A stretch of 22,262 nt of DNA from IMG/VR virus record IMGVR_UViG_2913147268_000007; one strand, written 5' to 3'. Shown piece after piece: positions 1,294 through 17,406 of the stretch. Position 1 is the first letter of the stretch; each line of letters starts with the position of its first letter. The translations under genes were made by a program, and so were the position numbers. Origin of the DNA: a virus. Taxonomy: Duplodnaviria; Heunggongvirae; Uroviricota; Caudoviricetes. The notes beneath the pieces are model-generated. The model ran no database searches, was not told the origin of the DNA, and saw only the letters and a program-made list of their open reading frames with translations.

Positions 1294-1413
1294 TACCCAA
1301 TTTTTCTGAATCTAAAAAGCGCCTGCGGGCGCTTTAAGTAGAGGTTTAATCATTTGAAAATAAATGGATTTTATTTTTAAGTGTCCATATAACGTCCATC
1401 TTTGAATGCAAAA

Positions 1414-1598: not shown

Positions 1599-1739
1599 TT
1601 ACTGCTTACACTGTAAGAACGCCGCAAACTCCGCTCCCCAGAAACTCATCCGTATTTCACACAGCGAACCGTGCAGCATCCAGATGATGAGGATTGCCGT
1701 CACGCAGAATGTGATGGCCGTAAGCGATTTTTGCGACAT
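1599..1739 (-). CDS. Hok/Gef-family type I toxin, 46 aa
   Basis: Hand translation of the minus strand from ATG (complement of 1737-1739) to TAA (complement of 1599-1601): MSQKSLTAITFCVTAILIIWMLHGSLCEIRMSFWGAEFAAFLQCKQ. It has the N-terminal transmembrane stretch plus the SLCEIR and E-AAF-CK motifs of Hok/Gef/HokA-like toxins. AAGGAG lies 8 nt upstream of the ATG. Not in the ORF track because it is under 60 aa. Confidence 0.7.
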   Translation of the reverse strand: MSQKSLTAITFCVTAILIIWMLHGSLCEIRMSFWGAEFAAFLQCKQ

Positions 1740-1930: not shown

Positions 1931-2191
1931 TTAATTCTGAGATAAAGGCAAACTCATCTGATTGTTTCCCCTGTGTGAAGCTGGCAGATCATGCCACGGG
2001 ATACCTTCTGAAGAGTGAACGCCGGAGGCGTGTTTTGATGTGAATTTATGGAAAGCTTCCAGTGTTGAGAAGCATACGCCGCATTCCAGATTGTTACACT
2101 GGTAATACTTTTGCCGCACGGTGTTTGAATCATTTTCCGGACGACTGGTGCGGATACGGGCAGATGCGCCACAAAGCGGACAACGGAACAT
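1931..2191 (-). CDS. ogr: Ogr/Delta-family zinc-finger late-gene transcription activator
   Basis: N-terminus MFRCPLCGASARIRTSR...YYQCNNLECGVCFST matches the Cys4 pattern of P2 Ogr (MFHCPLC...ARTSR...QC.N..C). RBS AAGGGAGG is upstream of the ATG (complement of 2189-2191). The 3' end is uncertain; the ORF is 86 aa against about 72 aa for P2 Ogr. Confidence 0.8.
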   Translation of the reverse strand: MFRCPLCGASARIRTSRPENDSNTVRQKYYQCNNLECGVCFSTLEAFHKFTSKHASGVHSSEGIPWHDLPASHRGNNQMSLPLSQN

Positions 2192-2231
2192 AGCGACCTC
2201 CCTTAACGTGGTGCTGCCTATTCTAAGTTGC

Positions 2232-3341
2232 TCACTCTGTTTCCGCTATCCATTCCGGGATTTTTGCCTCAAGCTCAAGCTGCGTGGTAAAACCGCTGTT
2301 ATCAATGGTGTGCTCGGCTTTTGCAATGATCCAGTCCTGATTATCAATCTCGCTTTTAAATCCTGTTACCGTGCCATGCATTTCGGGGTAGAGTTCTGCA
2401 CGTCCACGCGCCAGCGTGATGGAGAATGATGCGGCTCCGCGTTGTAGTTGCTGCCACTTTGCCGCCGCTGCGCGTCTTGCTGCCTGCTCGTTCTGATAAG
2501 TCTTGCGTAACACAAACACATTGCCTTCCGCGCCTTCCATATAATCACCTTCGCGGCTGCTGCTTTTCTCCTTTTTGGGTTTTGGCGGTTTACGGCGTTT
2601 CACGCTGACTTTTTTCTTTTTCCCGTAATTAAGATCAAGCCAGTAAGCGCGTACCCCCGTATACGCTTCGCGGTCAGCAATGCGGAACTGATGGCGATCG
2701 CCGCTGCTGCGTGTGATGGCAAACGATGGCAACGGCTGGCCCTGTGCGTTCACGCCACCGCCGGGCATGATGAATAACAGATTACCGCTTTTTACCGTGG
2801 TGATTGCGCCCAGCATTTCCGCCATGCGCGTAAGGAAGGACATGTCGCTTTCTTCGGTCTGGTCGGCGTGGTCGATTTCGATATCCATCAGCATTTCGCT
2901 GATTTGCGGTTTCAGACCATACCGATGAGCGATGGCGGATACCACACGCTCAACGGTCACATCATGCCAGGACACCTCACGTTTAACGTTAAATTCATCC
3001 CGAAAATCTGCGCTTCTGGCTGAAACAGTCAGCCTGTCCGGCGGTCCTTCGTGAGCGATTTCATCAACAATGTAAGTGCCTTTTTCTGTCAGCGGTTCTC
3101 CTTTCCAGCCAATGAGAACCGTCAGGCGCGCGCCCCGTGGCGGTAGCTGCAACTGACCATCCGCATCATCCAGCGTGATGGTGAGCTGGTCCGCCTCAAA
3201 TCCCCGGTTGTCGGTCAGTGACAGGCTCATCAGGCGCTCTGCCACGCCTGACAGCGTTTTACCCTCCGCGAGAATATCAAAATCCGGCATTTTCACGGGG
3301 TCTGTGCCCTGACTGAGCAATTGCATGGTGGTGTCGGTCAT
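2232..3341 (-). CDS. D: P2 gpD-like tail protein (late control gene D family)
   Basis: Track ORF 2232..3473 trimmed to the internal ATG at complement 3339-3341 (MTDTTMQLLSQG...), which is preceded by GGGAGGGAG. Size of about 369 aa and sequence character fit phage tail protein D. It sits beside ogr as in P2. Confidence 0.85.
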   Translation of the reverse strand: MTDTTMQLLSQGTDPVKMPDFDILAEGKTLSGVAERLMSLSLTDNRGFEADQLTITLDDADGQLQLPPRGARLTVLIGWKGEPLTEKGTYIVDEIAHEGPPDRLTVSARSADFRDEFNVKREVSWHDVTVERVVSAIAHRYGLKPQISEMLMDIEIDHADQTEESDMSFLTRMAEMLGAITTVKSGNLLFIMPGGGVNAQGQPLPSFAITRSSGDRHQFRIADREAYTGVRAYWLDLNYGKKKKVSVKRRKPPKPKKEKSSSREGDYMEGAEGNVFVLRKTYQNEQAARRAAAAKWQQLQRGAASFSITLARGRAELYPEMHGTVTGFKSEIDNQDWIIAKAEHTIDNSGFTTQLELEAKIPEWIAETE

Positions 3342-3498
3342 CTGCTCCCTCCCTGTGCGGCATGGTCGCATGTGCGTGCGGAGGGGGTTACTGCTTTTTG
3401 TTGTCGCCGTGGCGGGAGAACGGCGCAGGGGTGAGATTACGCGCGTGGTGGGTGATGATTGTTGCCGAATCATTTAACGGATACAAGGGGCTGAAGCT

Positions 3499-4683
3499 AT
3501 GAGTGAAACTCGTTTTCATGGTGCCCGTGTCACGGAAAGTACCGACCTGGTAACAGCGATTAATGATGTTGATTCCAGCGTTATCGGTATCGTGGCAACG
3601 GCGGATGATGCGGATGCGGAGCTGTTCCCGCTGAACAAGCCCACACTGCTGACCCGCGTCAATGACGTGCTGGGAAAATGCGGGACTACGGGGACGCTTT
3701 ATCGTGCGCTTAAGGCTATCGCAGACCAGGTGAGCACAAAAGTGATCGTCGTTCGCGTGGCTGAACACAAAGAAGAAGGCGGTAGGACGCAGGATCAACT
3801 GGTTATCGGTGGTTCTGAATCTGACGGCAGCTATACGGGGATGTATGCGCTGCTTGTTGCAGAGCAGGATGAAAGCATCGGATACCGTCCGCGTATTCTG
3901 GCCGCGCCGGAGCTGGACACGGAGGCGGTGACAAAATCCCTGTGCGTGATTGCGGGTAAACTGCGCGCGTTTGTGTATGCCACATGTCATGGTTGTAACA
4001 CGATGGCTGAGGCGATTACCTACCGCCAGAAATTCAACGAACGTGAGGTGATGCTCTTATGGCCTGACTTCATCGCCTACAACCCGAAAAGTGGCAAAAA
4101 CGAAACGTTCCCCGCGCCTGCTTATGCGTGCGGCCTTCGTGCGTACATTGACCATGAGCAGGGCTGGCACAAATCGCTGTCCAACGTTCCGGTTAAAAAT
4201 GTGCTGGGGATGTCGAGGCATGTGTTCTGGTCGTTACAGGCCGAAGACAGTGATGCCAACAGCCTCAACAACAAAGAAATCACGACCATTATTCGTCGTA
4301 ACGGGTTCCGCTTCTGGGGCAACCGCACACCGGAAACGAACGCCTACATCTTTGAGGTGTATACCCGAACCGCACAGGTGCTGGCTGATTCAATTGCGGA
4401 AGCGCAGTTTGAAACCATCGACAGTCCACTGACGCCTGCGAACGTGAAGGATGTTATCAGTGCCATCAGGGCAAAATTGGATTCGCTGGTTACTGCCGGG
4501 AAACTGATTGGCGCGGAGTGCTGGTATGACGTGGTGGATAACGGCACCACGGATTTACGTCAGGGGCGTGTGCGTATTCGCTACAAATATACGCCCGTTC
4601 CCCCGCTGGAAGACATGGAGCTTTACCAGACGTTTACTGATGAATTCTTTGGTCCCGCATTTGCGGTGCTGGGAGGTGCCTGA
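3499..4683 (+). CDS. FI: Contractile tail sheath protein (P2 FI-like), 394 aa
   Basis: Conserved sheath blocks shared with P2 FI: ADDADAE.FPLNKP, KLRAF.Y, WPDF, IDHEQGWHKSLSNV, IRRNGFRFWGNRT, YTPVPPLE. RBS aagggg upstream. Confidence 0.93.
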   Translation: MSETRFHGARVTESTDLVTAINDVDSSVIGIVATADDADAELFPLNKPTLLTRVNDVLGKCGTTGTLYRALKAIADQVSTKVIVVRVAEHKEEGGRTQDQLVIGGSESDGSYTGMYALLVAEQDESIGYRPRILAAPELDTEAVTKSLCVIAGKLRAFVYATCHGCNTMAEAITYRQKFNEREVMLLWPDFIAYNPKSGKNETFPAPAYACGLRAYIDHEQGWHKSLSNVPVKNVLGMSRHVFWSLQAEDSDANSLNNKEITTIIRRNGFRFWGNRTPETNAYIFEVYTRTAQVLADSIAEAQFETIDSPLTPANVKDVISAIRAKLDSLVTAGKLIGAECWYDVVDNGTTDLRQGRVRIRYKYTPVPPLEDMELYQTFTDEFFGPAFAVLGGA

Positions 4684-5195
4684 TGGCTGTACCAAAACAT
4701 CTTCGCTTTTTTACGTTGTTTGTGGATGGTGAAAACGAAGTGGGTAAAGTGACATCCGTCACGCCGCCCAAACTGACGCGCAAAACCGACAGCTATCGTG
4801 GTGGTGGCATGATGGGAGCAGTAAGTATTGATCTCGGTCTGGACGACTCCGCGCTTGATGCGAGCTTTGTCATGGGGGGAGCTGTTCGTGCACTGTTCCT
4901 TAAGTATGGCGGCACGATTGACGGCACGCTGCTGCGTTTTGCGGGTGAATATTACACCGATGCAGAAAGCGATCTGTATGAAATCGAGATGCGCGGGCGT
5001 GTGACGGAAATTGATATGGGGGAGGCCAAACAGGGCGAAGCCACATCACACACTTACGCTGTCAAAAACACCTACTACAAGCTGAGCGTTAACGATCGCC
5101 CGCTGTGGGAAATCGACCTGTTGAACCACATCTACCGGAAGGACGGCAAGGACATTGTGCCTGACCGCATTCGTTCCGCGCTTGGGCTTGGCTGA
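4683..5195 (+). CDS. FII: Tail tube protein (P2 FII-like), 170 aa
   Basis: ATG overlaps the sheath stop (TGATG). PKLTRK, YRGGGM, LGLDD, RFAG.Y and MRGR motifs are typical of FII tube proteins. Confidence 0.9.
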   Translation: MAVPKHLRFFTLFVDGENEVGKVTSVTPPKLTRKTDSYRGGGMMGAVSIDLGLDDSALDASFVMGGAVRALFLKYGGTIDGTLLRFAGEYYTDAESDLYEIEMRGRVTEIDMGEAKQGEATSHTYAVKNTYYKLSVNDRPLWEIDLLNHIYRKDGKDIVPDRIRSALGLG

Positions 5196-5250
5196 TAAGT
5201 AATATGCAGGCGGCGCAGTGCGTCGCCTCTGACTGAAAAGGAGACAACTG

Positions 5251-5625
5251 ATGAAAGATATCGATACTGAAACCCGGAATAACACCGTAGCGGATGATGT
5301 GACGTCAGGTGAGGATATGGCTGTCGAACGTGGTGTAAAACTTTCCCGGCCAATTGAGCGTGGTGCCGAAAAAATCACATATGTGGAGATCACCGGGGCT
5401 ATTGAGCAGGCGGGATCCCTGCGTGGTCTGTCGCTGTCTGATGTGCTGAATCTGAAAGCGGATACCATGTTCACGCTGTTGCCTCGCGTGACCTCGCCAC
5501 GACTGGATGAAGTGATGATTAAAAAAATGTCGTCACGCGATTTTATTCAGTTGTGCGCTGTGGCTGTAAATTTTATGAGCGAGCCAGACTCTGGCGCGAA
5601 GAGCGTGCAGGAGACGGCAGCGTAA
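5251..5625 (+). CDS. E: Tail assembly chaperone E (zero-frame product)
   Basis: 124-aa ORF in the position between tube and tape measure that gpE occupies in P2 and lambda G occupies in lambda; acidic N-terminus. Confidence 0.8.
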   Translation: MKDIDTETRNNTVADDVTSGEDMAVERGVKLSRPIERGAEKITYVEITGAIEQAGSLRGLSLSDVLNLKADTMFTLLPRVTSPRLDEVMIKKMSSRDFIQLCAVAVNFMSEPDSGAKSVQETAA

Positions 5626-5789
5626 TCACCCTGGTGTGCTTTGAGCACATCGAAGATCTGGTGGCGGATATTGCCGCCATTTTCAACTGGTCGCCCGCCG
5701 AAATCTTCATGATGACGCCCGGCGAAGTGGTTAGCTGGCGTGAGCGGGCGGCACTTCGCAGCGGGAATGCAGATAATGAAGACTCTTGA
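5251..5789 (+). CDS. E': E+E' fusion chaperone made by programmed -1 ribosomal frameshift
   Basis: The -1 frame is open from 5523 to 5789 and overlaps the tape-measure start. A canonical X_XXY_YYZ heptamer A_AAT_TTT lies at 5568-5574 with the zero-frame codons AAT (Asn) and TTT (Phe). The predicted product is about 179 aa. Confidence 0.6.
5568..5574 (+). promoter_or_regulatory. Candidate -1 frameshift slippery heptamer A_AAT_TTT
   Basis: Fits X_XXY_YYZ in the E reading frame. An alternative slip site is the A7 run at 5521-5527, but a -1 frame stop (TAA 5520-5522) makes tandem slippage there less canonical. Confidence 0.5.
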
Positions 5790-8583
5790 CATCCGGGTCG
5801 CTTTCAGCGCCGTTGACAGGCTGACCCGGCCTGCCGAAAACGCCCGCCGCCTGATGGGGCAGTTTGGTGACTCCATTCAGCGAACGCAGGGGGCGATCAA
5901 AAATCTCGAGCGTCAGGCGCGTTCATTTGAGCGCGCCCGCGACGCTGTCAGTAAAGCGGATGCGGGTATCGTGAAAGCACGACGCCAGCTTAACGCCCTT
6001 AATCAGTTACAACGCACGGGTACAGTGCTCAGCGAAAAACAACAAAAGCTGATGCAGCAGTTAAGCACCCGGCTTGAACGCCTGAATGAATCGCGCACAC
6101 GGGAAATTCAGAAAATGCGGGAGCTTGGCGGAGAACTGAAACGCCACGGCATTTCCCTGACAGGCAGCGATAACACCATCCAGCAGGCCATCAGACGCAC
6201 CGAACAATACAACAACCAGCTTGAACGCGAACGGCAGGCGCTTGCGCGTGTAACGCAGGCTCGTGAGCGGTATTCGCGCGCGCAGGAAACCGCGGGAAAA
6301 CTGAAAACAGGTGGTGCGCTGGCAATTGGTGCGGCAGCGGCGGGCGGCTATGCTGCCGGGCGTTTTTTGCAGCCCGCGATCGGGTTCGGCAAAGAGATGT
6401 CCCGCGTTCAGGCGCTGACGCGAATCGACAAAAACAGCCCGCAGTTTAAGGCGCTGCGTGAGCAGGCGTTAAAACTTGGCTCTGAAACACAGTTTACTGC
6501 GAGTGATGCCGCCAGTGGGCAGAGCTTTCTGGCAATGGCTGGTTTTACTCCGCAGGCCATTCAGGCCGCATTGCCCGGTGTTCTTAATATGGCGCTGGCA
6601 GGTGGCGTCGAACTCGGCGAGACGGCTGATATAGGCTCCAATATCCTCACACAGTTCAACCTGACAGCCGATCAAATGGACCGGGTTGGCGATACGCTGA
6701 CAGCGGCATTCACCCGGACCAATACTGATTTACGCGCGCTGGGCGAAACCATGAAGTATACCGGTCCGGTTGCCGCAAAACTTGGTATCAGTCTTGAAGA
6801 AGCGGCAGCCATGGCCGGGATGCTTGCCAATAATGGTCTTCGTGGAAGCGATGCTGGTACGGCCATGCGCGCAAGTCTGTCCCGCCTTGCATCACCGCCA
6901 AAAGCTGCGGCTGATGCGCTGAAAGAGCTGGGGGTGTCAGTTGCTGACGCCAGAGGCAAAATGCGCCCGATGGAGGATGTGCTGCTTGATCTCTATAAGG
7001 CGACACAAAAATACGGACAGGTGGACCAGGTTTCCTTCTTCAAGGACATCGCCGGAGAAGAGGCGTTCGTTGGTTTGCAGACGCTTGTTGCGGCGGCTGG
7101 TTCAGGAGAGCTGCAAAAACTGACCAGAGAATTGCAGGGGGCAAGGGGAGAGGCCGATCGCGTTGCAAAAGTAATGGCCGATAATCTTGATGGGGACCTG
7201 AAAAATCTCGACAGCGCATGGGAAGGTCTTCGTATTCGCATCAGTGATCTGGTTGACGGTCCGCTGCGTTCTGTCACGCAGTGGCTCACGCGGGTGCTTG
7301 AAAAAATCACCTCGCTGGCGCAGGCCCATCCGGTACTGACGCGCCAGCTACTGATAGCAGGCGGTGCGTTGCTGGCAATGACTGCAACGGTTGGCTCGTT
7401 GTCGCTGGCTATTGGTGTGCTTGCTGGCCCGCTGGCAAAACTGCGTCTTGGCTTTTCCCTCCTGACCGGTTCAATGAATGCTGTCAGACTCCTGCCAGCA
7501 CTATGGGGAATGGTGACGGGTTCCGTTTCGTTACTGGGGGGCGCTATCGGGGCGTTGTTCAGTCCGGTCGGCCTTATCGTGGCTGCGCTTGCCGGAGCTG
7601 CCGTTCTCATCTGGAAATACTGGGATCCCATCAGGGCATTTTTTGCCGGGGTGTTCAGCGGGATTATGGAAAGGCTGACCCCGTTGCGCGAAACCTTTGA
7701 ACGGTTTGGTCCTGTTTTTGACGCAATCGGGAGTGGGATCAGCCAGGTGTTTAACTGGTTTAAATCGCTGCTGTCTCCGATGGAGTCCAGCAAGGAAACT
7801 CTGGATAAATGTACCAGTGCTGGCGAGATATTCGGTAACGTTCTTGGCGGTGCGTTACAACTTGTTCTGACACCTGCAAAAATGTTGCTGGATACGCTGG
7901 CGTGGATACTTGAAAAGCTTGGTGTGCTTCCGGATGAAGCGGAAAGGGCGCGCAAGAAAATCGAAGACGCACAGCGTGCGGCCATTCTTCAGGACAAGGT
8001 TGCCTTGCTTCAGGGGGACCTGGCGAAAATCAATCCGCCGAAGCCTGTGGAAAATGGCAATGGCACCGGAGGTGATAACCCCAAAGACAATAAACCGCTC
8101 ACAGACAGCAATACCGGTACGCTGCGCAGACTCAGCAAAATTGCTGATAACACAGGTAAGCTGGTTGAGGAGACGAAAAAACGCATTGGCCCCGGCGATA
8201 TTGTCTTTAAAAACCTGCCCCGAGCACTTGCTGTTCGTGGGGAGTGGCAGGAGCGGAAGATTGCGCAGGTCAGTAAGCCTGCCCCCGCAATTAATATCAC
8301 ACCCGTGGTCCCGGCTCCGCTGCCTCCGGCGCTGGTCCCTGTTGTTGCGGCCAGCTCCCGCCCGGTGGCGGAGGCTATACGATCTCCAGTGGCATCAGTT
8401 CCTGTAACTTCCCGTAACCGGGAGCCTGTTGCCTCCGGATTTGGTGGTGAAATTCATGTTCATCTGCATAACGTTGTTACGCAGAATCCCCGCGAACTGG
8501 CGAAACTGGTCGGTGAAATGGTCAGGGCAGAAATGGAACGGCGCGCCCGTGCCGGGCGTGGCAGTTTTTACGATAAAGATTGA
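5767..8583 (+). CDS. T: Tail tape measure protein (P2 gpT-like)
   Basis: An ORF of about 940 aa following E/E', with a coiled-coil-rich N-terminus, Gly/Ala-rich hydrophobic segments in the middle and a C-terminal region. The start is uncertain among GTG 5740, ATG 5767 and ATG 5776. Confidence 0.9.
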   Translation: MQIMKTLDIRVAFSAVDRLTRPAENARRLMGQFGDSIQRTQGAIKNLERQARSFERARDAVSKADAGIVKARRQLNALNQLQRTGTVLSEKQQKLMQQLSTRLERLNESRTREIQKMRELGGELKRHGISLTGSDNTIQQAIRRTEQYNNQLERERQALARVTQARERYSRAQETAGKLKTGGALAIGAAAAGGYAAGRFLQPAIGFGKEMSRVQALTRIDKNSPQFKALREQALKLGSETQFTASDAASGQSFLAMAGFTPQAIQAALPGVLNMALAGGVELGETADIGSNILTQFNLTADQMDRVGDTLTAAFTRTNTDLRALGETMKYTGPVAAKLGISLEEAAAMAGMLANNGLRGSDAGTAMRASLSRLASPPKAAADALKELGVSVADARGKMRPMEDVLLDLYKATQKYGQVDQVSFFKDIAGEEAFVGLQTLVAAAGSGELQKLTRELQGARGEADRVAKVMADNLDGDLKNLDSAWEGLRIRISDLVDGPLRSVTQWLTRVLEKITSLAQAHPVLTRQLLIAGGALLAMTATVGSLSLAIGVLAGPLAKLRLGFSLLTGSMNAVRLLPALWGMVTGSVSLLGGAIGALFSPVGLIVAALAGAAVLIWKYWDPIRAFFAGVFSGIMERLTPLRETFERFGPVFDAIGSGISQVFNWFKSLLSPMESSKETLDKCTSAGEIFGNVLGGALQLVLTPAKMLLDTLAWILEKLGVLPDEAERARKKIEDAQRAAILQDKVALLQGDLAKINPPKPVENGNGTGGDNPKDNKPLTDSNTGTLRRLSKIADNTGKLVEETKKRIGPGDIVFKNLPRALAVRGEWQERKIAQVSKPAPAINITPVVPAPLPPALVPVVAASSRPVAEAIRSPVASVPVTSRNREPVASGFGGEIHVHLHNVVTQNPRELAKLVGEMVRAEMERRARAGRGSFYDKD

Positions 8584-8589
8584 GGAGTC

Positions 8590-9084
8590 ATGGCCATGAT
8601 GATGATCTACGGCATGTTTGTTTTTGAGCTGCGCACGCTGCCGCATCAGCAGTTACAGCAAAACAAAAGCTGGCGGCATGTGAAAAATGAACGCGTTAAC
8701 CGTTCAGCAAGCTGGCAGTATATCGGTGCAGGTGATGATCGCATCGTTCTTTCTGGTGTGCTTTATCCTGAAATTACAGGTGGCGAAGTGTCGCTGTCGC
8801 TGCTGACCACGCAGGCGTATACAGGACGACCCTGGCCTTTGATTGATGGCGTCGGGCAGATTTACGGCATGTATGTCCTGACTGAAACGAATACGACCCG
8901 CTCCGAGTTTGATCGCTACGGTAAGGCGAAAAAGATAGAATTTTCACTGACTCTTGAACGCTGTGATGAGGATTTGCGGGAGCGCCTGCAATCCTCATCG
9001 TTCAGTGATATGCTGTCCGGCTTCAAAGATAAGGTGACATCATCTCTTAACAGCGCGGCCAGTTCAGTTAAAGGGCTGTTCTGA
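8590..9084 (+). CDS. U: Tail protein U (P2 gpU-like), 164 aa
   Basis: GMFVFELRTLPHQQLQ...SWRHV.N.RVNRS...LSGVLYPEITGG closely parallels P2 gpU. RBS gaggag upstream. Confidence 0.88.
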   Translation: MAMMMIYGMFVFELRTLPHQQLQQNKSWRHVKNERVNRSASWQYIGAGDDRIVLSGVLYPEITGGEVSLSLLTTQAYTGRPWPLIDGVGQIYGMYVLTETNTTRSEFDRYGKAKKIEFSLTLERCDEDLRERLQSSSFSDMLSGFKDKVTSSLNSAASSVKGLF

Positions 9085-9094
9085 TTTAACACAA

Positions 9095-9122
9095 AAACCG
9101 CTAATGGTCAGATTAGCGGTTT
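9095..9122. terminator. Bidirectional hairpin between convergent U and invertase genes
   Basis: Perfect 11-bp inverted repeat aaaccgctaat / attagcggttt with a 6-nt loop, followed by tcattttcc. The invertase stop codon (complement of 9113-9115) lies inside the hairpin. Confidence 0.55.
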
Positions 9123-9712
9123 TCATTTTCCTGAGTCTGCCCGGTTGTTTCTTCAGTCTGTATATCGCCTACAGGGTGATAACGATAAATCGTCGATGTG
9201 CCAATGCCGTAAATTATTGCCAGTTGTTTTCTGTCGTGCCCGTTTTTGATTAGCCTTGCTATTTGCTCATGCTGTTCTTTTGTCAGCTTCGGTCGACGTC
9301 CGCCTGTGCGCCCCCTTGCGCGCGCTGCCGCCAGCCCGGCCAGTGTACGTTCAACAATTAATTCACGTTCCATTTCAGCCAGGGCACCCATCACGTGGAA
9401 GAAAAAACGCCCCATTGGAGAAGATGTGTCTATGCTGTCGGTCAGACTGCGAAAATTAATCCCTCGCTCCCGTAGTTCCCCGACGAGAGAAATCAGATGT
9501 TTCATGCTTCGCCCGAGGCGATCCAGTTTCCAGACAACCAGCGTGTCACCTTTTTGAAGGCGCTTTAAAGCGCGTTTTAATCCCGGTCGGTCTGTCTTTG
9601 TCCCGCTTAATTTATCTTCAAATATTTGTTCACATCCTGCACAAACAAGAGCGTTTCGTTGCAGGTCTGTATTCTGGTCATTTGTTGATACCCTTACATA
9701 GCCAATCAGCAC
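9113..9712 (-). CDS. Serine recombinase, DNA invertase of the Hin/Gin/Cin/Pin family
   Basis: N-terminus (V)LIGYVRVSTNDQNTDLQRNAL carries the catalytic serine; C-terminal HTH GRRPKLTKEQHEQIARLIKNGHDRKQLAIIYGIGTSTIYRY matches the Hin DNA-binding domain. The likely start is GTG at complement 9710-9712, with GGGAGA upstream; the track ORF begins at TTG 9730. Confidence 0.92.
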   Translation of the reverse strand: MLIGYVRVSTNDQNTDLQRNALVCAGCEQIFEDKLSGTKTDRPGLKRALKRLQKGDTLVVWKLDRLGRSMKHLISLVGELRERGINFRSLTDSIDTSSPMGRFFFHVMGALAEMERELIVERTLAGLAAARARGRTGGRRPKLTKEQHEQIARLIKNGHDRKQLAIIYGIGTSTIYRYHPVGDIQTEETTGQTQENENR

Positions 9713-9766
9713 ACTGAATCTCCCGTCCAAAAGCGCAAATCATGCCATGCAGGCCAGAAACGGCCA

Positions 9767-9792
9767 TTATTTAAAACCTCGGTTTACGAGAA
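9767..9792. promoter_or_regulatory. gix/hix-like invertase crossover site
   Basis: ttatttaaaacc tc ggtttacgagaa is an imperfect 12-2-12 dyad around the AAACC..GGTTT core typical of hix/gix/cix sites. It lies about 55 bp from the invertase start. Confidence 0.7.
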
Positions 9793-10410
9793 CTCGGCAC
9801 AAGCGGGGAGAAAATACCGTTACTCAGTACAGCGAATACCTGGACTAATCGACAAACATTCAGCGGTGGCCTTTCTGGTGAACTATCCGGCAATGCTTCT
9901 ACAGCTGCAAAATTAAAAACTGCCAGGAAAATAAGCAATGTGGCTTTTGATGGTTCCTCCGATATCACATTAAAAGCAAGTCATGTTGGTGCGTTTGCCT
10001 TAGGGAAAACAGGAAGCACCGTTGCGAATGATAAAGCAGTTGGATGGAACTGGAGTAGCGGAGCCTATAACGCAACTATTAGTGGTGCATCAACGTTAAT
10101 TATTCATTTTTATATGGGAGAAGGAAGTTGTCCTGCAGCTCAGTTTCGGATTAATTATAAAAATGGCGGTATTTTTTATCGTTCAGCCCGTGATGGTTAT
10201 GGTTTTGAAGCCGACTGGTCCGAATTTTACACCACCACCAGAAAACCTTCAGCAGGAGATGTTGGTGCACTGCCGTTATCTGGTGGTCAACTGAATGGTG
10301 CACTGGGTATCGGAACATCCAGTGCTCTTGGCGGTAATTCGATTGTATTGGGTGATAATGACACGGGCTTTAAACAAAATGGCGATGGTAATCTGGATGT
10401 TTATGCTAAT
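9778..10410 (+). other. Silent promoterless tail-fibre C-terminal cassette, 3' end lost in N-run
   Basis: The frame opens exactly at the crossover site, with an in-frame TAA at 9772-9774 immediately upstream. It encodes LGLRELGTSGEKIPLLSTANTWTNRQTF..., identical at the start to the expressed fibre cassette at 15261 onward and diverging toward the C-terminus. Confidence 0.7.
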
Positions 10411-10420
10411 NNNNNNNNNN
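10411..10420. other. Assembly gap (10 N)
   Basis: Literal run of n. Confidence 1.
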
Positions 10421-10501
10421 TTAACTGATATCACTAAAAATGCCGCGTACGGCGTCGATATCGGCAGCCTGGTGCTGGAAATCAATAATCCCGCAGCATA
10501 A
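10421..10501 (+). other. 3' end fragment of an unidentified upstream gene
   Basis: Open frame reading ...LTDITKNAAYGVDIGSLVLEINNPAA* from the gap edge. By P2 synteny the gene upstream of R would be a lysis gene, but the sequence is not diagnostic. Confidence 0.3.
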
Positions 10502-10524
10502 GGAAGAGCAGGAGAGCAAAACAG

Positions 10525-10992
10525 ATGCTTAAGACAAACAGTCTGCGAGAGTCCATGCTTCATGGGTGTCGGTGGTGCCAGGCTAATCCCGAGAAATTCA
10601 CCATTTTCGTGGAGAGCGGCAACATTGAAACGACCGGAGAAGCGCCCTCGTTTGTTTACCGCTATCAGATGGTGATGTTTGTCATGGATTACGCCGGAGA
10701 GCTGGACGACCTCACGCTGCCGCTGCTGGCGTGGTTATCCGAAAATCAGCCACAGTTGTTGCTCAATCCGGAGCGTAATCAGGACATCAAATTTTCTGCC
10801 GTTATCAATGACGATGACAGCGCCGATCTCCTGTTTACGCTCCCCCTGCGGGAACGCGTTCGCATCACGCGCAACAGTCAGGGCACACCGCAGGCAGAAC
10901 ACCTGCCGGAGCCAAAACCCCGTCTGCCTTCTTCCGAAGGCGACTGGTCGCATGTATTCCAGGATGTGACGTGGGGTGAAAGCGATGGATAA
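10525..10992 (+). CDS. R: Tail completion protein R-like, 155 aa
   Basis: MLKTNSLRE... and LPLLAWLSENQP parallel P2 gpR (MLKPDSLRR..., VPVLAWLRENQP). Same length as P2 R; RBS aggag upstream. Confidence 0.75.
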   Translation: MLKTNSLRESMLHGCRWCQANPEKFTIFVESGNIETTGEAPSFVYRYQMVMFVMDYAGELDDLTLPLLAWLSENQPQLLLNPERNQDIKFSAVINDDDSADLLFTLPLRERVRITRNSQGTPQAEHLPEPKPRLPSSEGDWSHVFQDVTWGESDG

Positions 10993-11620
10993 GGCATTCA
11001 CCCGCGTGGATGAAACCTTTGAGGCTATCCGCGACAGCCTGAATCAGCAGGCCATCAATAACATCGCCAGAAAGCTGGCACAGGATTTACGTCGCGCCCA
11101 GCAGGCACGTATCCGGTCACAAAAAGCGCCGGACGGGACCGAATGGACACCACGCAGACGCCGCGTAACCCGGATACAGGAGCGCATTCGCTTTATCTGG
11201 AATAACGAAGCACGCACGCTGAAAAACTGGCATCACGACACAGGGAAATACGGGCGAACCATTACCGGGTGGGATGAGGATAAAAACAATATCCGCACGT
11301 TTTACCGGGATGACATCGACCGTTTTCTGGAAATACGCACCCGGCGCATCAACCAGGACAGCACAAAGCGCGTCCCCATGTTCGTAAAACTGCGCACCGC
11401 CCGCTACCTGAAAGCCCGTGCAGATGCCTCCGGTGTGACGGTGGGTTACAGCGGCGTGGCCGCACGTATTGCACGCGTTCATCAGTTCGGTGAGCGCGAT
11501 CAGGTTGCGCCGGGCATTTTCACCGATTACCCGGTACGTGAGCTGTTGGGTATCAGCCAGGCAGATGAGCGCCTGATTTATAACACGGTGCTGGGCCGGA
11601 TTGCGGAGGCTGTACGGTGA
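10985..11620 (+). CDS. S: Tail completion / virion morphogenesis protein S-like
   Basis: Assigned by its position between R and V and its basic, Arg-rich character. The start is ambiguous between GTG 10976 and ATG 10985 and overlaps the R stop. Confidence 0.6.
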   Translation: MDKAFTRVDETFEAIRDSLNQQAINNIARKLAQDLRRAQQARIRSQKAPDGTEWTPRRRRVTRIQERIRFIWNNEARTLKNWHHDTGKYGRTITGWDEDKNNIRTFYRDDIDRFLEIRTRRINQDSTKRVPMFVKLRTARYLKARADASGVTVGYSGVAARIARVHQFGERDQVAPGIFTDYPVRELLGISQADERLIYNTVLGRIAEAVR

Positions 11621-12198
11621 GCGCAGAACTCATGCGACTGCTGAGCAACATCATCCGCACCGGGATCATCTCTGAAGTTGATGAGAAGTCCTGGCGCGTG
11701 CGCGTTCGCAGCGGCGAACTGGAAACAGGCTGGTTGCGCTGGAACACCACGCGCGCGGGAGCCTTCAATGTGTGGCTGCCGCCATCACCAGGCGAACAGG
11801 TGGTAATTGCCTGCATTGGCGGCAACCCGGAAACCGCCATGATAATTGGCAGCCTGTGGAGTGATGCCAGTCCGGCCCCCGGCAAAAGCCTGAAAGAAAT
11901 CGTGGTCAGCGCGCCGGATGGCGCGGTGTTCCGCTACGACGCAGACGCTGGCGCACTGAGCGCCAGCGGCATGAAAACAGCCACCCTGCAGGCATCCGTC
12001 AGCGTGACACTGGATACGCCCGTCGTGGAATGCACAAACCTTCTGAGAACGGCGACGCTTGACGTCACAAAAGAGGGAAAGATGAGCGGCAATATCACGC
12101 ACAGCGGCGGCAATTTCACCTCAAACGGCATTACCGTGCATACGCATAAGCACGGTGGCGTTAAAGGTGGCAGCGATTCGACAGGAGGCCCGCAGTGA
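11617..12198 (+). CDS. V: Baseplate spike protein V, 193 aa
   Basis: IRTGIISEVD near the N-terminus and C-terminal NGITVHTHKHGG..GGSDSTGG match P2 gpV (IRTGII..., NGKVLHTHKHPGDSGGTTG). GTG start overlaps the S stop (GTGA). Confidence 0.88.
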   Translation: MSAELMRLLSNIIRTGIISEVDEKSWRVRVRSGELETGWLRWNTTRAGAFNVWLPPSPGEQVVIACIGGNPETAMIIGSLWSDASPAPGKSLKEIVVSAPDGAVFRYDADAGALSASGMKTATLQASVSVTLDTPVVECTNLLRTATLDVTKEGKMSGNITHSGGNFTSNGITVHTHKHGGVKGGSDSTGGPQ

Positions 12199-12545
12199 CA
12201 ACCCGCTACACAGGAATGAACCCGGACGGGACGGGAAACCTGAACGATATGGAGCACCTGAAACAGTCAGTCAGGGACATCCTGATCACCCCGCTGGCAA
12301 GCCGGGTTATGCGACGGGAATATGGCAGCCTTGTGCCTGATTTGATTGACGAACCCATGAATAACACCACGCGTCTGCAATGCATGAGTGCTGCCGTGAT
12401 TGCGCTGACACGATGGGAACCCCGCATTGCCCTGGACGCCATCGACGTTGTCTGGAAGGCAGGAGGCCGCGCCGGGGTGACGCTGTCGGGCACTGTCATG
12501 CAGACCATGCAGAATGTTGAATTAACCATCACGCTGAGAGAGTAA
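12195..12545 (+). CDS. W: Baseplate protein W (GPW/gp25 family), 116 aa
   Basis: MTTRYTGMN...ITPLASRVMRREYGSL...WEPRI parallels P2 gpW (MTARYLGMN...RTPVGSRVMRRDYGSL...WEPRV). GTG start overlaps the V stop. Confidence 0.88.
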   Translation: MTTRYTGMNPDGTGNLNDMEHLKQSVRDILITPLASRVMRREYGSLVPDLIDEPMNNTTRLQCMSAAVIALTRWEPRIALDAIDVVWKAGGRAGVTLSGTVMQTMQNVELTITLRE

Positions 12546-12548
12546 ATC

Positions 12549-13445
12549 ATGCCTGCTGTTGATCTTTCCCAGTTACCGGAACCCGCCATCATCGCGGAGC
12601 CTGATTTTGAGGCAATTCTGGCTGACACAAAGGCCATGATGATTGCGTCCTATCCTGCCGAACAGCGTGAAGCCGTCTCCGCCGCGCTGGAGCTGGAATC
12701 AGAACCCCTGAACGTTATCGCTCAAACCATGTCGTTTCGTGAAATGCTGTTACGCCAGCGGGTTAACGAGGGCGCACGCGCCTGCATGTTAAGCCACGGT
12801 TCAGGGACAAACCTGGACAACCTCGCGGGCAATATGAACACAAAGCGCCTGGTTATCACTCCGGCAACGGATACCACCGACGCGGTGATGGAGAGCGACA
12901 CCTCGCTGAGACTGCGGGCGCAGCGGGCGTATGACGGCCTGAGTGTTGCTGGCCCGTCAGGTGCATACGAGTATTTTGCACGCAGCGCCAGCGGTCTGGT
13001 GCGTGATGCGCGGGCCATCAGCCCGTCTCCGGCCTGTGTGACGGTTTCCATTCTGTCCACTGAAGGCGACGGCACAGCAACGGAGGCGTTGCTTAATACC
13101 GTTCGCGCCGTTCTGAATGCAGAGGATACCCGCCCGGTGGCCGACCGACTGACCGTACAGAGCGCCAGCATCGTGACATGGCGGCTGAATGCAAAACTGT
13201 ACTTTTACCCCGGCCCGGAATCCGAACCTATTCTGGCTGCGGCTGAATCGTCGTTCAGGAAGTGGCTGGCTGAGCAGGGGCTTATTGGTCAGGACGTGGC
13301 GTTGTCAGCCATTGCTGCCGCACTTCATGTGCACGGCGTGCAACGCGTGGAGATAATCGAACCCACACAGAATATGGCCATCAGCGACATACAGGCGGCG
13401 CGCTGTGAGTCATTCACCATCAGCGAAGGTGGGCGTAATGAGTAA
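12549..13445 (+). CDS. J: Baseplate protein J, 298 aa
   Basis: Size, position after W and sequence character fit P2 gpJ (about 302 aa). Confidence 0.85.
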   Translation: MPAVDLSQLPEPAIIAEPDFEAILADTKAMMIASYPAEQREAVSAALELESEPLNVIAQTMSFREMLLRQRVNEGARACMLSHGSGTNLDNLAGNMNTKRLVITPATDTTDAVMESDTSLRLRAQRAYDGLSVAGPSGAYEYFARSASGLVRDARAISPSPACVTVSILSTEGDGTATEALLNTVRAVLNAEDTRPVADRLTVQSASIVTWRLNAKLYFYPGPESEPILAAAESSFRKWLAEQGLIGQDVALSAIAAALHVHGVQRVEIIEPTQNMAISDIQAARCESFTISEGGRNE

Positions 13446-13968
13446 TTCACTGTTACCGCCATCAGCCAGCAATTTCATGCGTTGCGCCGAAGCTGTCGGA
13501 GCGCGCATTACAGACATCCCGGTAGACCTCAACACGCTGTGGTCACCGGACACCTGCCCGGTGCATCTGCTGCCTTATCTCGCCTGGGCATTTTCCGTTG
13601 ACCGCTGGGATCGCAACTGGCCGGAAGAGACAAAGCGACAGGTGATTCGTGATGCATGGCTGATACACCGACACAAAGGGACCATCAGCGCACTGCGCCG
13701 GGCCATTGAGCCGCTGGGATACCTCATTCGCGTGTCTGAGTGGTGGGAGTTCGGCGGAGAACCGGGAACATTTACCGTTGAAGTCGGCACGCTGGACAGT
13801 GGCGTGACGGAGGAAATGTATCTGGAAATGGAGCGGTTGATTGCTGATGCCCGCCCGGTCAGCCGCCACATGACAGGGCTGAATATCATTCAGGAGATTC
13901 AGGGAGATATTTTCGCGGCGGCAGCAACTTACGACGGCGAAGTCATTACCATTTATCCGGACGATTAA
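13438..13968 (+). CDS. I: Baseplate protein I, about 176 aa
   Basis: ATG at 13438 overlaps the J stop (ATGAGTAA). The length equals P2 gpI and it sits immediately upstream of the tail fibre gene. Confidence 0.85.
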   Translation: MSNSLLPPSASNFMRCAEAVGARITDIPVDLNTLWSPDTCPVHLLPYLAWAFSVDRWDRNWPEETKRQVIRDAWLIHRHKGTISALRRAIEPLGYLIRVSEWWEFGGEPGTFTVEVGTLDSGVTEEMYLEMERLIADARPVSRHMTGLNIIQEIQGDIFAAAATYDGEVITIYPDD

Positions 13969-13970
13969 GC

Positions 13971-15970
13971 ATGAGTACCACAACACGTAAATTTAAAACC
14001 GTTATCACCGATACGGGTGCCAAAAAATTAGCTCAGGCAGCCGCGCCAGATGGTAAGCCTGTCCGCCTGACTCATATGGCCGTGGGCGACGGTGGCGGCA
14101 CGTTGCCCACACCAGACAGTAAGCAGACCCGTCTGGTGCATGAGGTGTGGCGACATACTGTTAATCGCGTCATCCTGGACGCAACACATCAGAACCGCAT
14201 TATTGCGGAGCTGGTTATTCCTCCTGAAACGGGCGGATTCTGGATCCGGGAAATTGGTGTATTTGATGAGCACGGCGATTTAATCGCGGTGGGCAATACT
14301 GCCGAAAGTTACAAGCCAGCCGTTGCCGAAGGGTCCGGTCGTGCACAAACATTTCGCACCATTCTGACCGTATCCAGCACTGCCACCGTGGTGCTTACCG
14401 TGGATAACACCATGGTGATGGCCACAGTGGATTACGTGGATGACAAACTGAAAGAGCATGAACAGTCACGACGTCACCCGGACGCCTCGCTGACCGCAAA
14501 AGGCTTTGTTCAACTCAGTAGCGCCACTAACAGCGTGTCTGAAACGCAGGCTGCAACGCCGAAAGCAGTAAAGGCCGCGTATGACCTTGCTAACGGTAAA
14601 TATACTGCGCAGGATGCCAGCACGACGCGAAAAGGCCTTGTCCAGCTCAGTAGCGCCACCAACAGCACGTCTGAAACGCAGGCTGCAACGCCGAAAGCAG
14701 TAAAGGCCGCGTATGACCTTGCTAACGCAAAATATACCGCTCAGGACGCCACGACGGCACAAAAAGGGATAGTCCAGCTCAGTAGTGCCACCAACAGCAC
14801 GTCTGAAACACTGGCCGCGACATCGAAAGCTGTTAAGGCGGTAATGGATGAAACGAACAAGAAAGCGCCCTTAAATAGTCCTGCACTGACCGGAACGCCA
14901 ACAANNNNNNNNNNNNNNNNNNNNNNNNNNNNNNNNNNNNNNNNNNNNNNNNNNNNNNNNNNNNNNNNNTCGTTATGGCTGCGATTGCCGCCCTTGTAGA
15001 TTCGTCACCTGATGCACTGAACACGCTGAACGAGCTGGCTGCGGCGCTGGGCAACGACCCGAATTTTGCGACCACCATGACTAACGCGCTTGCGGGTAAG
15101 CAACCGAAAGATGCCACCCTGACGGCGCTGGCCGGACTTACTACTGCGGCAGGCAAGTTTCCGTATTTTACGGGGAATGATGTCGCCAGCCTGGCAACCC
15201 TGACAAAAGTCGGGCGGGATATTCTTGCGAAATCGACCGTTGCTGCCGTTATCGAATACCTCGGTTTACGAGAACTCGGCACAAGCGGGGAGAAAATACC
15301 GTTACTCAGTACAGCGAATACCTGGACCAATCGACAAACATTCAGCGGTGGCCTTTCTGGGGAACTGTCCGGCAATGCCGCTACTGCAACAAAGCTGAAA
15401 ACAGCACGAAAAATTGCTGGAGTTGGTTTTGATGGTTCTAGCGATATTTCAATTAGTGCCAAAAATGTCAATGCATTTGCACTCCGACAAACAGGTAATA
15501 CTGTTAATGGTGATACATCCGTTGGATGGAATTGGGATAGTGGTGCATATAACGCCATGATTGGTGGTGCATCTGCATTAATTCTTCACTTTAATATAAA
15601 TGCTGGTAGCTGTCCTGCCGTACAATTCCGTGTGAATTATAAAAATGGTGGCATTTCCTACAGGTCGGCTCGTGATGGTTATGGGTTTGAATTAGGTTGG
15701 TCAGATTTCTATACCACGACACGAAAACCTTCAGCGGGAGATGTTGGTGCATATACGCGGACAGAATGTAACTCAAGGTTTATTACAGGTATTCGCCTTG
15801 GCGGTCTGTCATCTGTTCAGACATGGAATGGTCCCGGCTGGTCTGACAGGTCAGGTTATGTCGTTACGGGTTCAGTTAACGGAAACCGTGATGAATTAAT
15901 TGATACAACACAGGCAAGGCCAATTCAGTATTGCATTAATGGGACGTGGTATAACGCGGGGAGTATTTAA
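13971..15970 (+). CDS. H: Tail fibre protein (gpH-like), interrupted by a 65-N gap at 14905-14969
   Basis: The N-terminal domain, the stretch ...PALTGTPT [gap] ...YVMAAIAALVDSSPDALNTLNELAAALGNDP..., and the EYLGL junction all parallel P2 gpH. The C-terminus ends with the conserved ..INGTWYNAGSI tip motif. The reading frame across the gap cannot be verified. Confidence 0.85.
14499..14870 (+). repeat. Three tandem 132-nt (44-aa) repeats in the tail fibre shaft
   Basis: Repeated unit KG(F/L/I)VQLSSATNS.SET.AAT.KAVKA.... The repeats also create the spurious antisense ORF 14466..14762. Confidence 0.8.
14905..14969. other. Assembly gap (65 N) inside the tail fibre gene
   Basis: Literal run of n. 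Confidence 1.
15250..15275. promoter_or_regulatory. In-frame gix-like crossover site inside the tail fibre gene
   Basis: ttatcgaatacc tc ggtttacgagaa; its right half is identical to the site at 9767-9792. It encodes IEYLGLRE at the constant/variable boundary. Confidence 0.65.
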
Positions 15971-15972
15971 CG

Positions 15973-16506
15973 ATGATGCACTTAAAAAACATTACTGCTG
16001 GCAACCCTAAAACAAAAGAGCAATACCAGCTAACAAAGCAATTTAACATCAAATGGCTTTATTCAGCTGATGGAAAAAACTGGTATGAGGAACAAAAGAA
16101 TTTCCAGCCAGACACTTTGAAAATGGTCTATGACCATAACGGCGTTATTATTTGTATTGAAAAGGATGTTTCAGCAATTAATCCGGAAGGCGCAAGCGTC
16201 GTTGAATTACCTGATATTACAGCAAATCGCCGGGCTGATATTTCGGGGAAATGGATGTTCAAAGATGGCGTAGTGGTAAAGCGAACTTATACCGAGGAAG
16301 AGCAGAGGCAACAAGCGGAAAATGAAAAGCAGAGCCTGTTGCAACTTGTCAGGGATAAAACTCAGCTATGGGACTCACAGCTACGGCTGGGCATCATTTC
16401 CGACGAGAATAAACAAAAATTAACCGAGTGGATGCTCTATGCGCAGAAAGTCGAATCCACAGACACCTCCAGCCTGCCAGTAACATTTCCCGAACAACCT
16501 GAATGA
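15973..16506 (+). CDS. G: Tail fibre assembly chaperone (Tfa, gpG-like / Mu U-like), 177 aa
   Basis: Starts 2 nt after the fibre stop. [14 protein letters not shown]...[20 protein letters not shown]... is the typical Tfa pattern. Confidence 0.9.
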   Translation: MMHLKNITAGNPKTKEQYQLTKQFNIKWLYSADGKNWYEEQKNFQPDTLKMVYDHNGVIICIEKDVSAINPEGASVVELPDITANRRADISGKWMFKDGVVVKRTYTEEEQRQQAENEKQSLLQLVRDKTQLWDSQLRLGIISDENKQKLTEWMLYAQKVESTDTSSLPVTFPEQPE

Positions 16507-16510
16507 GACA

Positions 16511-16539
16511 AGGCCCGATAACGGGCCTTAATTTTTATT
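16511..16539. terminator. Bidirectional hairpin terminator between convergent tfa genes
   Basis: Stem aggcccg / cgggcct with loop ataa, then taatttttatt. Confidence 0.6.
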
Positions 16540-16939
16540 CAGGCTTTTGTGGCCATTCAGGATTTGCCGTATCCACACGGTTGACCAGAACACTGTAGCG
16601 TTCCCATGCTTCCAGTCGTGTGCGTTCCTCGTCTGTTGCCATATTCAGCCTGACAGCGCGTTCCAGCGGCTGGATGACTGATTCAGCTTCGGAAAGCAAT
16701 GCGGCCTTTTGTGATTCGGCCTGTTGTTGCTGTTCGTCAGCCGTATAAATCCGTTTAACCACAGCTCCGTCCTTAAACATCCACTTACCGGAATCATCGG
16801 TCCGACGATTGGCCGTTATATCGGGAACCTCGACGACGCTAAAACCTTCGGGATTAAGCGTGGAGGCATCTCTGGTGATGGCGACAATAATATTATTTTC
16901 ATCGTAAACAATCTTTATGGTGTCTGGCTGAAAGTTTTT
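16535..16939 (-). CDS. Tail fibre assembly chaperone, second type; N-terminus lost in N-run
   Basis: ...[46 protein letters not shown]...PEWPQKPE. Convergent with the tfa at 15973 and of a different C-terminal type. Confidence 0.85.
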
Positions 16940-17240: not shown

Positions 17241-17405
17241 AACAACTGGCAAACATGGAATTTCCAGTGCCCTTCAGGTCATGTATTGTCTGGTATTAAT
17301 GTTCAGGATACAGGGTCTAACTCTGCCGATAATATAGCGGGCGTTTATTACAGACCCGTTCAAAAGTATATAAATGGCACCTGGTATAATGTAGCGAGCG
17401 TTTAA
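16950..17405 (+). CDS. Tail fibre C-terminal variable cassette, 5' partial; contains a 10-N gap
   Basis: Encodes ...[35 protein letters not shown]...[17 protein letters not shown] with the conserved fibre-tip ending. There is no start, constant region or crossover site on this block. Confidence 0.75.
17091..17100. other. Assembly gap (10 N)
   Basis: Literal run of n. Confidence 1.
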
Positions 17406-17406
17406 T

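Follow-up and report, generated by a model that had tools for sequence, protein, structure and literature searches.

Phage P88 (Xuanwuvirus P88, NC_026014) carries hok, ogr and D, then FI to U, an invertase, fibre cassettes, H to R, lysis genes and head genes, and is mitomycin-inducible and plaque-forming, with a 55 nm head and a contractile tail (PMC5285337). Its listed relatives are P884B11, Citrobacter phiSM and Escherichia phages 520873, 503458 and 500465-2, and phiSM is an active temperate phage (PMC6456863). In the more distant Peduovirus P2 (NC_001895), the FI-U genes are not inverted, and in Klebsiella phage Kp4880-3/3LV2017 (Reginaelenavirus, Peduoviridae) they are inverted relative to both R-H and D-ogr. 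The G segment of Mu and D108 with its Gin, along with P1 Cin, e14 Pin and Salmonella Hin, has a serine invertase beside a segment with inverted 26-bp sites matching TTCNNGTAAACCGAGGTNTTNNATAA, and this segment holds oppositely oriented alternatives for the fibre C-terminus and its chaperone. Furthermore, P2-derived tailocins such as carotovoricin Er and xenorhabdicin consist of P2-type contractile tail genes, some with invertase-switched fibres, in loci without head, packaging or integration genes.

The window analysed here, a stretch of 22,262 nucleotides, is a scaffold of six pieces with five N runs between them. It very probably covers the right arm of a P88-type phage of the P2 family, temperate and complete, in a misjoined draft scaffold. 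The preliminary description read ogr and D as minus-strand genes, FI-FII-E-T-U as plus-strand genes and then an invertase followed by R-S-V-W-J-I-H-G, and these gene calls are right by both Pfam and P2 orthology. Pfam families were found for the complete P2-type tail set (R, S, V, W, J, I, H, G, FI, FII, E, T, U, D) and Ogr, and each of these genes and ogr has a full-length P2 orthologue by tblastn at 25-64% amino acid identity. Two stretches, of 8334 and 4332 bp, have 93.1% and 97.1% nucleotide identity to P88, and the tail gene products are 93-99.7% identical to those of P88, except E at 72%. At genus level, the ICTV criterion is about 70% nucleotide identity across the genome. The parts of the window compared lie above this value and the remainder was judged through closed ST131 loci of P88 layout, which would place the prophage in the genus Xuanwuvirus (Peduoviridae). 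The host chromosome would be that of an ST131-type E. coli. The layout of the genus was also found, with ogr-D diverging from FI-U, the invertase and cassettes between U and H, and the strand of R-H taken from closed genomes.

Once corrected, the locus has the same content, order and strands as P88. However, P88 is without the DUF6645 gene that the ST131 prophage has as an extra between the lysis genes and R, and the fibre cassettes of the two differ. Compared with P2, FI-U is inverted and would be the sole inverted part, D lies off the F operon and diverges from FI, the Z/fun region is replaced by a Gin-type invertase and invertible fibre cassettes, and S and V are adjacent without the intervening orf30. 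That P2-type structural genes are combined here with a fibre and invertase layout of Mu type, one of the readings first suggested for this DNA, proved essentially correct in view of the gin-U'-S' region of D108, about 93% identical in nucleotides, and of the 26-bp gix-like sites. Whereas the segment of Mu lies in a Mu-type tail module, here it lies in a P2-type one, and the constant part of the fibre is like that of P2 H (64% amino acid identity). Kp4880-3 differs in genus and host, at 45-70% amino acid identity, and an invertase homologue was not detected in the 23 kb of it that were compared. The FI-U inversion is an old trait that at least two genera of Peduoviridae have in common, Xuanwuvirus and Reginaelenavirus, and it implies expression of D separately from the F operon.

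Left end of the prophage and the FI-U block

The serS gene (1-1293, plus strand; Pfam) is followed by its 20-bp terminator hairpin, AAAGCGCCTGCGGGCGCTTT (1316..1335), the attL core and left end of the prophage, and the same 20-mer is found again after the integrase in closed strain 4/1-1. When the empty site serS-core-dmsA was rebuilt, it gave a match at 100% identity, and 5075 of the 5426 closed E. coli genomes that served for all junction and site counts have it intact. A tyrosine integrase would insert the prophage at this terminator, between serS and dmsA. The prophage end also holds a hok/gef-family toxin gene (1599..1739, minus), annotated in identical closed loci and 97.8% identical in amino acids to the MokW-like gene of P88; a scan of Rfam for Sok or other RNAs gave no match at the gathering threshold.

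The late-gene activator gene ogr (1931..2191, minus; Pfam Ogr_Delta, E = 5e-14) encodes a zinc finger protein that is 98.8% identical to that of P88 and 36% identical to P2 Ogr. D (2232..3341, minus; Pfam Phage_GPD) encodes the gpD tail/baseplate hub protein, with 97% amino acid identity to P88 and 48% to P2 D. A frameshift in D, suspected from a short PGAP call in strain 4/1-1, was rejected, as the ORF is intact and identical. D and FI are separated by a divergent spacer of 157 bp (3342..3498). This junction and that between U and the invertase are contiguous and base-identical in two closed chromosomes, so the inversion of FI-U relative to P2, as first described, is real. The D/FI junction is present in 1357 of the 5426 closed genomes (a quarter), and also in phage P88 and Klebsiella Reginaelenavirus. 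The ST131 prophage sits at serS-dmsA, and this site is unoccupied in most of the 1357 genomes.

It appears that D was detached from the F operon and set back to back with FI, and that the spacer retains a P2-pF-like candidate activator site, from which Ogr would presumably drive both directions. This candidate, GTTGT-N14-AAC (3400-3421), lies 99 nt before the FI ATG, a P2-like distance. When the spacer was aligned with P88, Kp4880-3 and the late promoters of P2, a perfect TGT-N12-ACA was seen at the aligned place in Kp4880-3, where the motif is conserved, but the D/FI spacer of the window has no perfect match to this canonical Ogr site. The relaxed motif has three matches window-wide against 0.87 expected, and because this count is not significant the site is treated as a candidate only. 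Matches in a sigma-70 promoter scan of 1250-3600 were no more than chance. D may thus have a separate promoter under Ogr control.

All genes of the FI-U block lie on the plus strand. The tail sheath gene FI (3499..4683; Pfam sheath domains), with 97.5% amino acid identity to P88 and 46% to P2 FI, is followed by the tail tube gene FII (4683..5195; Pfam Phage_tube, E = 2e-45). The tail assembly chaperones E and E' (5251..5789) match Pfam Phage_TAC_7 weakly, and a GpE-family ORF is annotated in the closed loci; the two overlap in the -1 frame at 5553-5625, with AAATTTT (5568-5574) as a candidate slippery heptamer read from the sequence. The tape measure gene T (5776..8583; Pfam PhageMin_Tail, E = 1.6e-56) has 93.6% amino acid identity to P88, and the tail protein gpU (8596..9084; Pfam Phage_P2_GpU, E = 5.5e-39) 99.4%.

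Gene content in closed ST131 chromosomes

Positions 1-9700 of the window are base-identical to the closed E. coli ST131 strains 4993 and 4/1-1, and in closed ST131 chromosomes the prophage measures about 38.7 kb from serS to dmsA. Lysis, head (capsid, scaffold), terminase, portal, replication endonuclease, cox, repressor and integrase genes are contiguous with R in the closed loci. Likewise, the P2-type genes Q, P, O, N, M and L and int/C/cox, which are outside the window, are contiguous with the tail genes in closed ST131 chromosomes identical to the window. Examination of the 22 kb confirmed the earlier remark that they contain no head, terminase, portal or integrase gene; their absence would come from the draft scaffold, with these genes lying outside its pieces. 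That this genome has head, packaging and integrase genes we infer from closed genomes identical over the shared parts. The true order would begin with serS, att, hok, ogr and D (minus) and FI, FII, E, E', T and U (plus), continue through the invertase (minus), the invertible fibre cassettes and H, I, J, W, V, S and R (minus), and end with the DUF6645 gene, lysis genes, X, L, M, N and O, then P and Q, then replication genes, cox, C and int, before dmsA. The locus is a common, already known prophage, and its gene order, inducibility and fibre switching have been described for the P88 type.

Completeness of gene content may not extend to activity in every strain. In closed strain 4/1-1 the small terminase gene gpM is interrupted by an internal stop, and strain 4993 has an IS1 within the early region, and therefore some ST131 copies may yield no viable phage. 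These lesions could point to a degraded, non-inducible P88-like remnant, that is, a cryptic prophage whose tail module looks intact. However, each of the 16 genes for tail, regulator and invertase functions in the window has its full length, inversion of the fibre segment still occurs from strain to strain and no sign of decay is seen within the window, which makes such a remnant unlikely, although it deserves some weight. A degraded prophage, as proposed in the preliminary description, finds no support in the gene set of the closed genomes.

The same gene set bears on the proposal of a tail-only or bacteriocin locus, a phage-tail-like bacteriocin (tailocin) from a P2-type phage that kept tail, fibre, invertase and regulator and lost head, packaging and integration. 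Such an element would account for a tail gene set that is complete and intact in a window without head, terminase, portal or integrase genes, and carotovoricin also has invertase-switched fibres. However, closed genomes identical over 1-9700 and over 4.5 kb of R-H carry the full phage set contiguous with R, unlike P2-derived tailocins, and the window itself still has the 3' end of the gene found before R in the closed prophages. P88, which shares this layout, is complete and has headed virions. The tailocin reading was rejected on the complete phage gene set of the closed identical loci and is very improbable. The two observations that the preliminary description had itself named as counting against its reading, a full head module with normal phage production and a scaffolding artefact, were both made, through closed genomes and phage P88 (PMC5285337).

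The R-to-H block and the scaffold joins

The block at 10421..16939 consists of two pieces, reverse-complemented in the scaffold, whose products are 95-99.7% identical in amino acids to P88. It opens at the start of piece 2 with 81 bp of the DUF6645 gene 3' end (10421-10501), followed by R (10525-10992), S (10985-11620), V (11632-12198), W (12195-12545), J (12549-13445), I (13438-13968), the fibre gene H (13971-15970, with a 65-N gap at 14905-14969) and a fibre assembly gene (15973-16506), all on the plus strand as scaffolded. A second assembly gene, which is cut, lies on the minus strand as scaffolded (16535-16939), and all of these genes were assigned with Pfam.

N runs bound this block, at 10411-10420 on the left and 16940-16949 on the right, and the orientation of R-H is for this reason without contiguous-sequence support. 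In the closed locus of strain 4993 (L001), 10421-14904 corresponds to 36331-31848 on the opposite strand at 100% over 4484 bp, and 14970-16939 to 31796-29827, again on the opposite strand, at 100% over 1970 bp. The R-to-H block converges on the invertase in the closed chromosomes and lies on the strand opposite to FI-U. Moreover, window positions 9763-10410 equal 12544-11897 of closed locus L005 and 16950-17080 equal 11896-11766 of the same locus, so that piece 4 runs straight on from piece 1, and none of the 5426 closed E. coli genomes has the scaffold join of 10410 to 10421. The placement of R-S-V-W-J-I-H on the plus strand after the invertase, given in the preliminary description, thus fails against the closed genomes and appears from these alignments to be a scaffolding artefact. 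The odd gene order noted there stands in one part, the divergence of D and FI, which is normal for the phage genus, whereas the placement of R-H is an assembly error.

The misjoin very probably arose through fibre and invertase repeats common to this prophage and a second one. Positions 17091..22262 (plus) are foreign, comprising fibre cassettes and other parts of a lambdoid prophage beside trpA/ompW, and match JJ1886 at 1.489 Mb, as well as other ST131 genomes, with 99.9% identity; this prophage lies about 0.5 Mb away from the P88-like one. A true strain-specific rearrangement, such as an invertase-mediated inversion of 0.5 Mb between gix sites of the two prophages that brought R-H onto the FI-U strand, was rejected as highly unlikely: the two prophages of one chromosome do have gix sites in common and a cassette that is 99% identical, and a preprint reports fibre-segment exchanges between ST131 prophages (bioRxiv 10.1101/2022.05.07.487787), but N runs enclose the R-H block, piece 3 links the constant part of H to the P88-type cassette as in strain 4993 and not to that of the other prophage, piece 1 ends mid-cassette with its exact continuation in piece 4, and the join is absent from the closed genomes. 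As a caution, invertible tail-fibre cassettes that are repeated among prophages break short-read assemblies, and scaffolders that flip or misjoin such pieces can create spurious 'tail-only' or rearranged elements.

Invertible fibre segments in the two prophages

The invertase of the P88-like prophage is a Gin/Pin-type serine DNA invertase (9113..9712, minus; Pfam Resolvase PF00239, E = 1.5e-50; HTH_7 PF02796, E = 4.4e-13), with 98.9% amino acid identity to the P88 invertase and about 93% nucleotide identity to D108 gin. A pattern search of the window for gix-like sites gave three matches against 0 expected by chance. One 26-bp crossover site adjoins the invertase (9767..9792, minus) and is also seen in the closed loci, and another lies inside H at the constant/variable boundary (15249..15274, minus). 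These two sites are inverted in closed loci L001 and L005 and in P88 but direct in the window, because the R-H block is flipped there. A silent alternative cassette for the fibre C-terminus (9793..10410, plus; Pfam gp37_C) continues in piece 4 (16950-17080). The constant part of H is joined to cassette A in the window and in strain 4993 and to cassette B in 4/1-1, and the fibre segment has opposite orientations in these two strains. Inversion of the fibre segment in the 'Entero_P88' prophage of ST131 isolates has also been reported (bioRxiv 10.1101/2022.05.07.487787). The converging ends of H and U would flank the Gin-type invertase and a G-segment-like cassette, and recombination between the two 26-bp sites would give fibre protein H another C-terminus and another chaperone and so change the host range.

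In the lambdoid prophage, a gix site is located at 19528-19553, the fibre segment has the orientation opposite to that in JJ1886, and of the prophage's own recombinase only a remnant is left, about 60 aa long. We consider the chances about even that this prophage near trp is acted on in trans by the Gin-type invertase encoded in the P88-like one. If true, a single invertase could alter host range in several resident prophages at once and permit the exchange of cassettes between them. The lambdoid part of the window also encodes a methyltransferase (20299-20967, minus) and Rha (21705-22262, minus).

The complete prophage at serS

Pfam scans of the window bore out the gene calls of the preliminary description. 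serS (1-1293, plus strand) is followed by ogr (1931-2191) and D (2232-3341) on the minus strand, FI (3499-4683) and FII, E, T and U (to 9084) on the plus strand, a resolvase-family invertase (9113-9712, minus), a plus-strand fibre C-terminal fragment (9940-10410) and, past the first gap, R, S, V, W, J and I (plus, to 13968). H and several fibre-assembly and fibre C-terminal cassettes come after I, and a methyltransferase and a Rha regulator lie at the window end. Full-length P2 counterparts exist for all of the tail genes, at 25-64% amino acid identity. A -1 frame overlap between E and E' lies at 5553-5625, where a canonical-looking slippery heptamer, A_AAT_TTT (5568-5574), differs from the P2 slippery site GGTTTTTTG; E' is a separate small gene in the PGAP annotation.

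A megablast search of 5426 closed E. coli genomes and of deposited phages placed the locus as a P88-type prophage of E. coli ST131, with Escherichia phage P88 (Xuanwuvirus, Peduoviridae), P884B11 and Citrobacter phage phiSM as close relatives. In closed genomes the element runs from serS and a 20-bp att core through hok, ogr and D (minus), FI, FII, E, E', T and U (plus), the invertase (minus), invertible fibre cassettes, H, I, J, W, V, S and R (minus) and a DUF6645 gene to spanin, endolysin and holin, X, L, M, N and O, P and Q, parM and partition genes, a replication endonuclease, cox, repressor and integrase, the second att core and dmsA, and P88 has the same layout. The att core, AAAGCGCCTGCGGGCGCTTT (1316-1335), is the palindromic serS terminator hairpin and recurs past int (39973-39992 of L005, the locus from closed strain 4/1-1). 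The rebuilt empty site was matched at 100% identity, so that the prophage boundaries are exact and the element measures ~38.7 kb. A hok/gef-family toxin gene (1599-1739, minus), also present in P88, occupies the extreme prophage end; Rfam detected no Sok or hok-mRNA family there at the gathering threshold.

It had been proposed that the locus could be a tail-only element. By the tests set out with that proposal, it is refuted by the contiguous head, packaging, lysis and integrase genes of the closed genomes, by the plaque-forming P88 particles obtained after mitomycin C, whose icosahedral head measures 55 nm and whose contractile tail measures 137 nm (PMC5285337), and by the spontaneous release of the temperate phage phiSM (PMC6456863). 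The present isolate would likewise carry head and integrase genes outside the window, because the closed genomes are identical to the window in the sequence that both contain and because R is preceded by 81 bp from the 3' end of the DUF6645 gene (10421-10501). Some ST131 copies may be defective, given an internal stop in gpM of strain 4/1-1 (L005 21193-21993) and an IS1 in the early region of the strain 4993 prophage. Separately, the TEM description of phiSM is that of a siphovirus whose tail is non-contractile (PMC6456863), and the deposited Shae_phiSM genome (GenBank OR565851) matches the sheath/tube/D module of the window at 94% nucleotide identity; phiSM and phiNP may have had their morphologies swapped.

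Scaffold structure and the R-to-H placement

Five N runs (10411-10420, 14905-14969, 16940-16949, 17081-17090 and 19889-19898) make the 22,262-base window a scaffold of six pieces, whose order and orientation across the gaps are unestablished by the sequence. Positions 1-9700 match closed strains 4993 and 4/1-1 base for base. Pieces 2 (10421-14904) and 3 (14970-16939) are 100% identical to the opposite strand of L001, the strain 4993 locus, at 36331-31848 and 31796-29827 respectively, and piece 4 (16950-17080) exactly continues the end of piece 1 (L005 11897 to 11896). Pieces 5 and 6 (17091-22262) match, at 99.9% identity, the fibre end of a different, lambdoid prophage, which in ST131 chromosomes lies next to trpA/ompW and ~0.5 Mb away from serS. 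It follows that the true order runs from piece 1 to piece 4, then, over ~308 bp, to reverse-complemented piece 3 and, over ~51 bp, to reverse-complemented piece 2 and onwards.

The described order of P2-type tail genes is accurate for the scaffold, but the placement of R to H is a mis-join. Three further, independent observations support this reading. In none of the closed E. coli genomes (0/5426) was a query across the join 10410|10421 covered as one place. The gix-like 26-mers at 9767-9792 and 15249-15274 (0 expected by chance) are direct in the window and inverted in strains 4993 and 4/1-1 and in P88; a Gin/Hin-type invertase needs inverted crossover sites. Furthermore, the contig breaks sit at near-identical sequence common to both prophages: the trp-side prophage matches 9763-10410 at 99.2% identity, and at their starts pieces 4 and 5 are 95%-identical alternatives. 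The locus is a known phage type viewed through a mis-scaffolded draft. A 132-bp tandem duplication of Phage_fiber_2 repeats (14498-14761, 88% identity) lies inside H, close to the 65-N gap at 14905-14969, and probably contributed to the contig break there.

The FI-U inversion and the D/FI spacer

The divergent D/FI junction is the real part of the non-P2 order. Relative to P2, only FI-FII-E-E'-T-U is inverted in the P88-type prophage; D and ogr still point the same way as R-H, and D is therefore detached from the F operon, diverging from FI over 157 bp. Of the 5426 closed genomes, 1357 have the junction and, as the empty serS site is intact in 5075, most P88-like prophages must lie elsewhere. 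The junction also turns up in eight or more deposited phages and in Klebsiella phage Kp4880-3 (Reginaelenavirus; 45-70% amino acid identity), and the P2 order is retained in Kapieceevirus, another Klebsiella genus. This spread makes the inversion an old lineage trait and not a local event. No invertase was detected in 23 kb of Kp4880-3, so the inversion is older than, or independent of, gain of the invertase cassette.

GTTGT-N14-AAC at 3400-3421 lies 99 nt upstream of the FI start, roughly as far away as the pF activator site is in P2, and at the aligned position the Kp4880-3 spacer holds a perfect TGT-N12-ACA. The window D/FI spacer has no perfect TGT-N12-ACA, and the count of the relaxed motif is not significant. 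Judged from sequence, pF would have been retained, and D may have gained, or may share, a candidate Ogr-dependent promoter, like P2 pP/pO. In many ST131 genomes PGAP shortens D to a 'VgrG/Pvc8 family' protein (L005 2232-3085), although strain 4/1-1 has an intact D ORF, the same as in strain 4993.

Fibre switching in the two prophages

The suggestion that P2-type structural genes are combined with a fibre and invertase layout of the Mu type proved a fair description of the known genus. The invertase is 98.9% identical in amino acids to that of P88, and the invertase-fibre region is ~93% identical in nucleotides to gin-U'-S' of the Mu-like phage D108. Between the gix sites, alternative H C-termini and Caudo_TAP chaperones lie in opposite orientations, and the constant part of H is joined to one cassette in the window and strain 4993 and to the other in strain 4/1-1. 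Inversions of the 'Entero_P88' fibre segment have been reported in ST131 isolates (bioRxiv 10.1101/2022.05.07.487787). The invertible region of strain 4993 (L001 27823-30793) holds four fibre-assembly genes as two identical, palindromic pairs, compared to two genes in strain 4/1-1 (L005 9778-11580); the extra pair may stem from an unequal inversion that duplicated the genes, or from the assembly itself.

In the trp-side prophage, the fibre segment in piece 5 (17091-19888) is in the opposite orientation to JJ1886 (L004, the locus of that prophage, 11357-14697), and the recombinase is only a remnant of ~60 aa. This points to an invertase encoded elsewhere acting in trans, for which the P88-like Gin homologue may be a candidate. 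At the lambdoid prophage end (20299-20967, minus, and 21024-21578), a class I SAM-dependent methyltransferase gene lies amid fibre-assembly gene fragments, and Rha and ash genes come next. The methyltransferase gene has the look of a moron that entered fibre cassettes already in decay.
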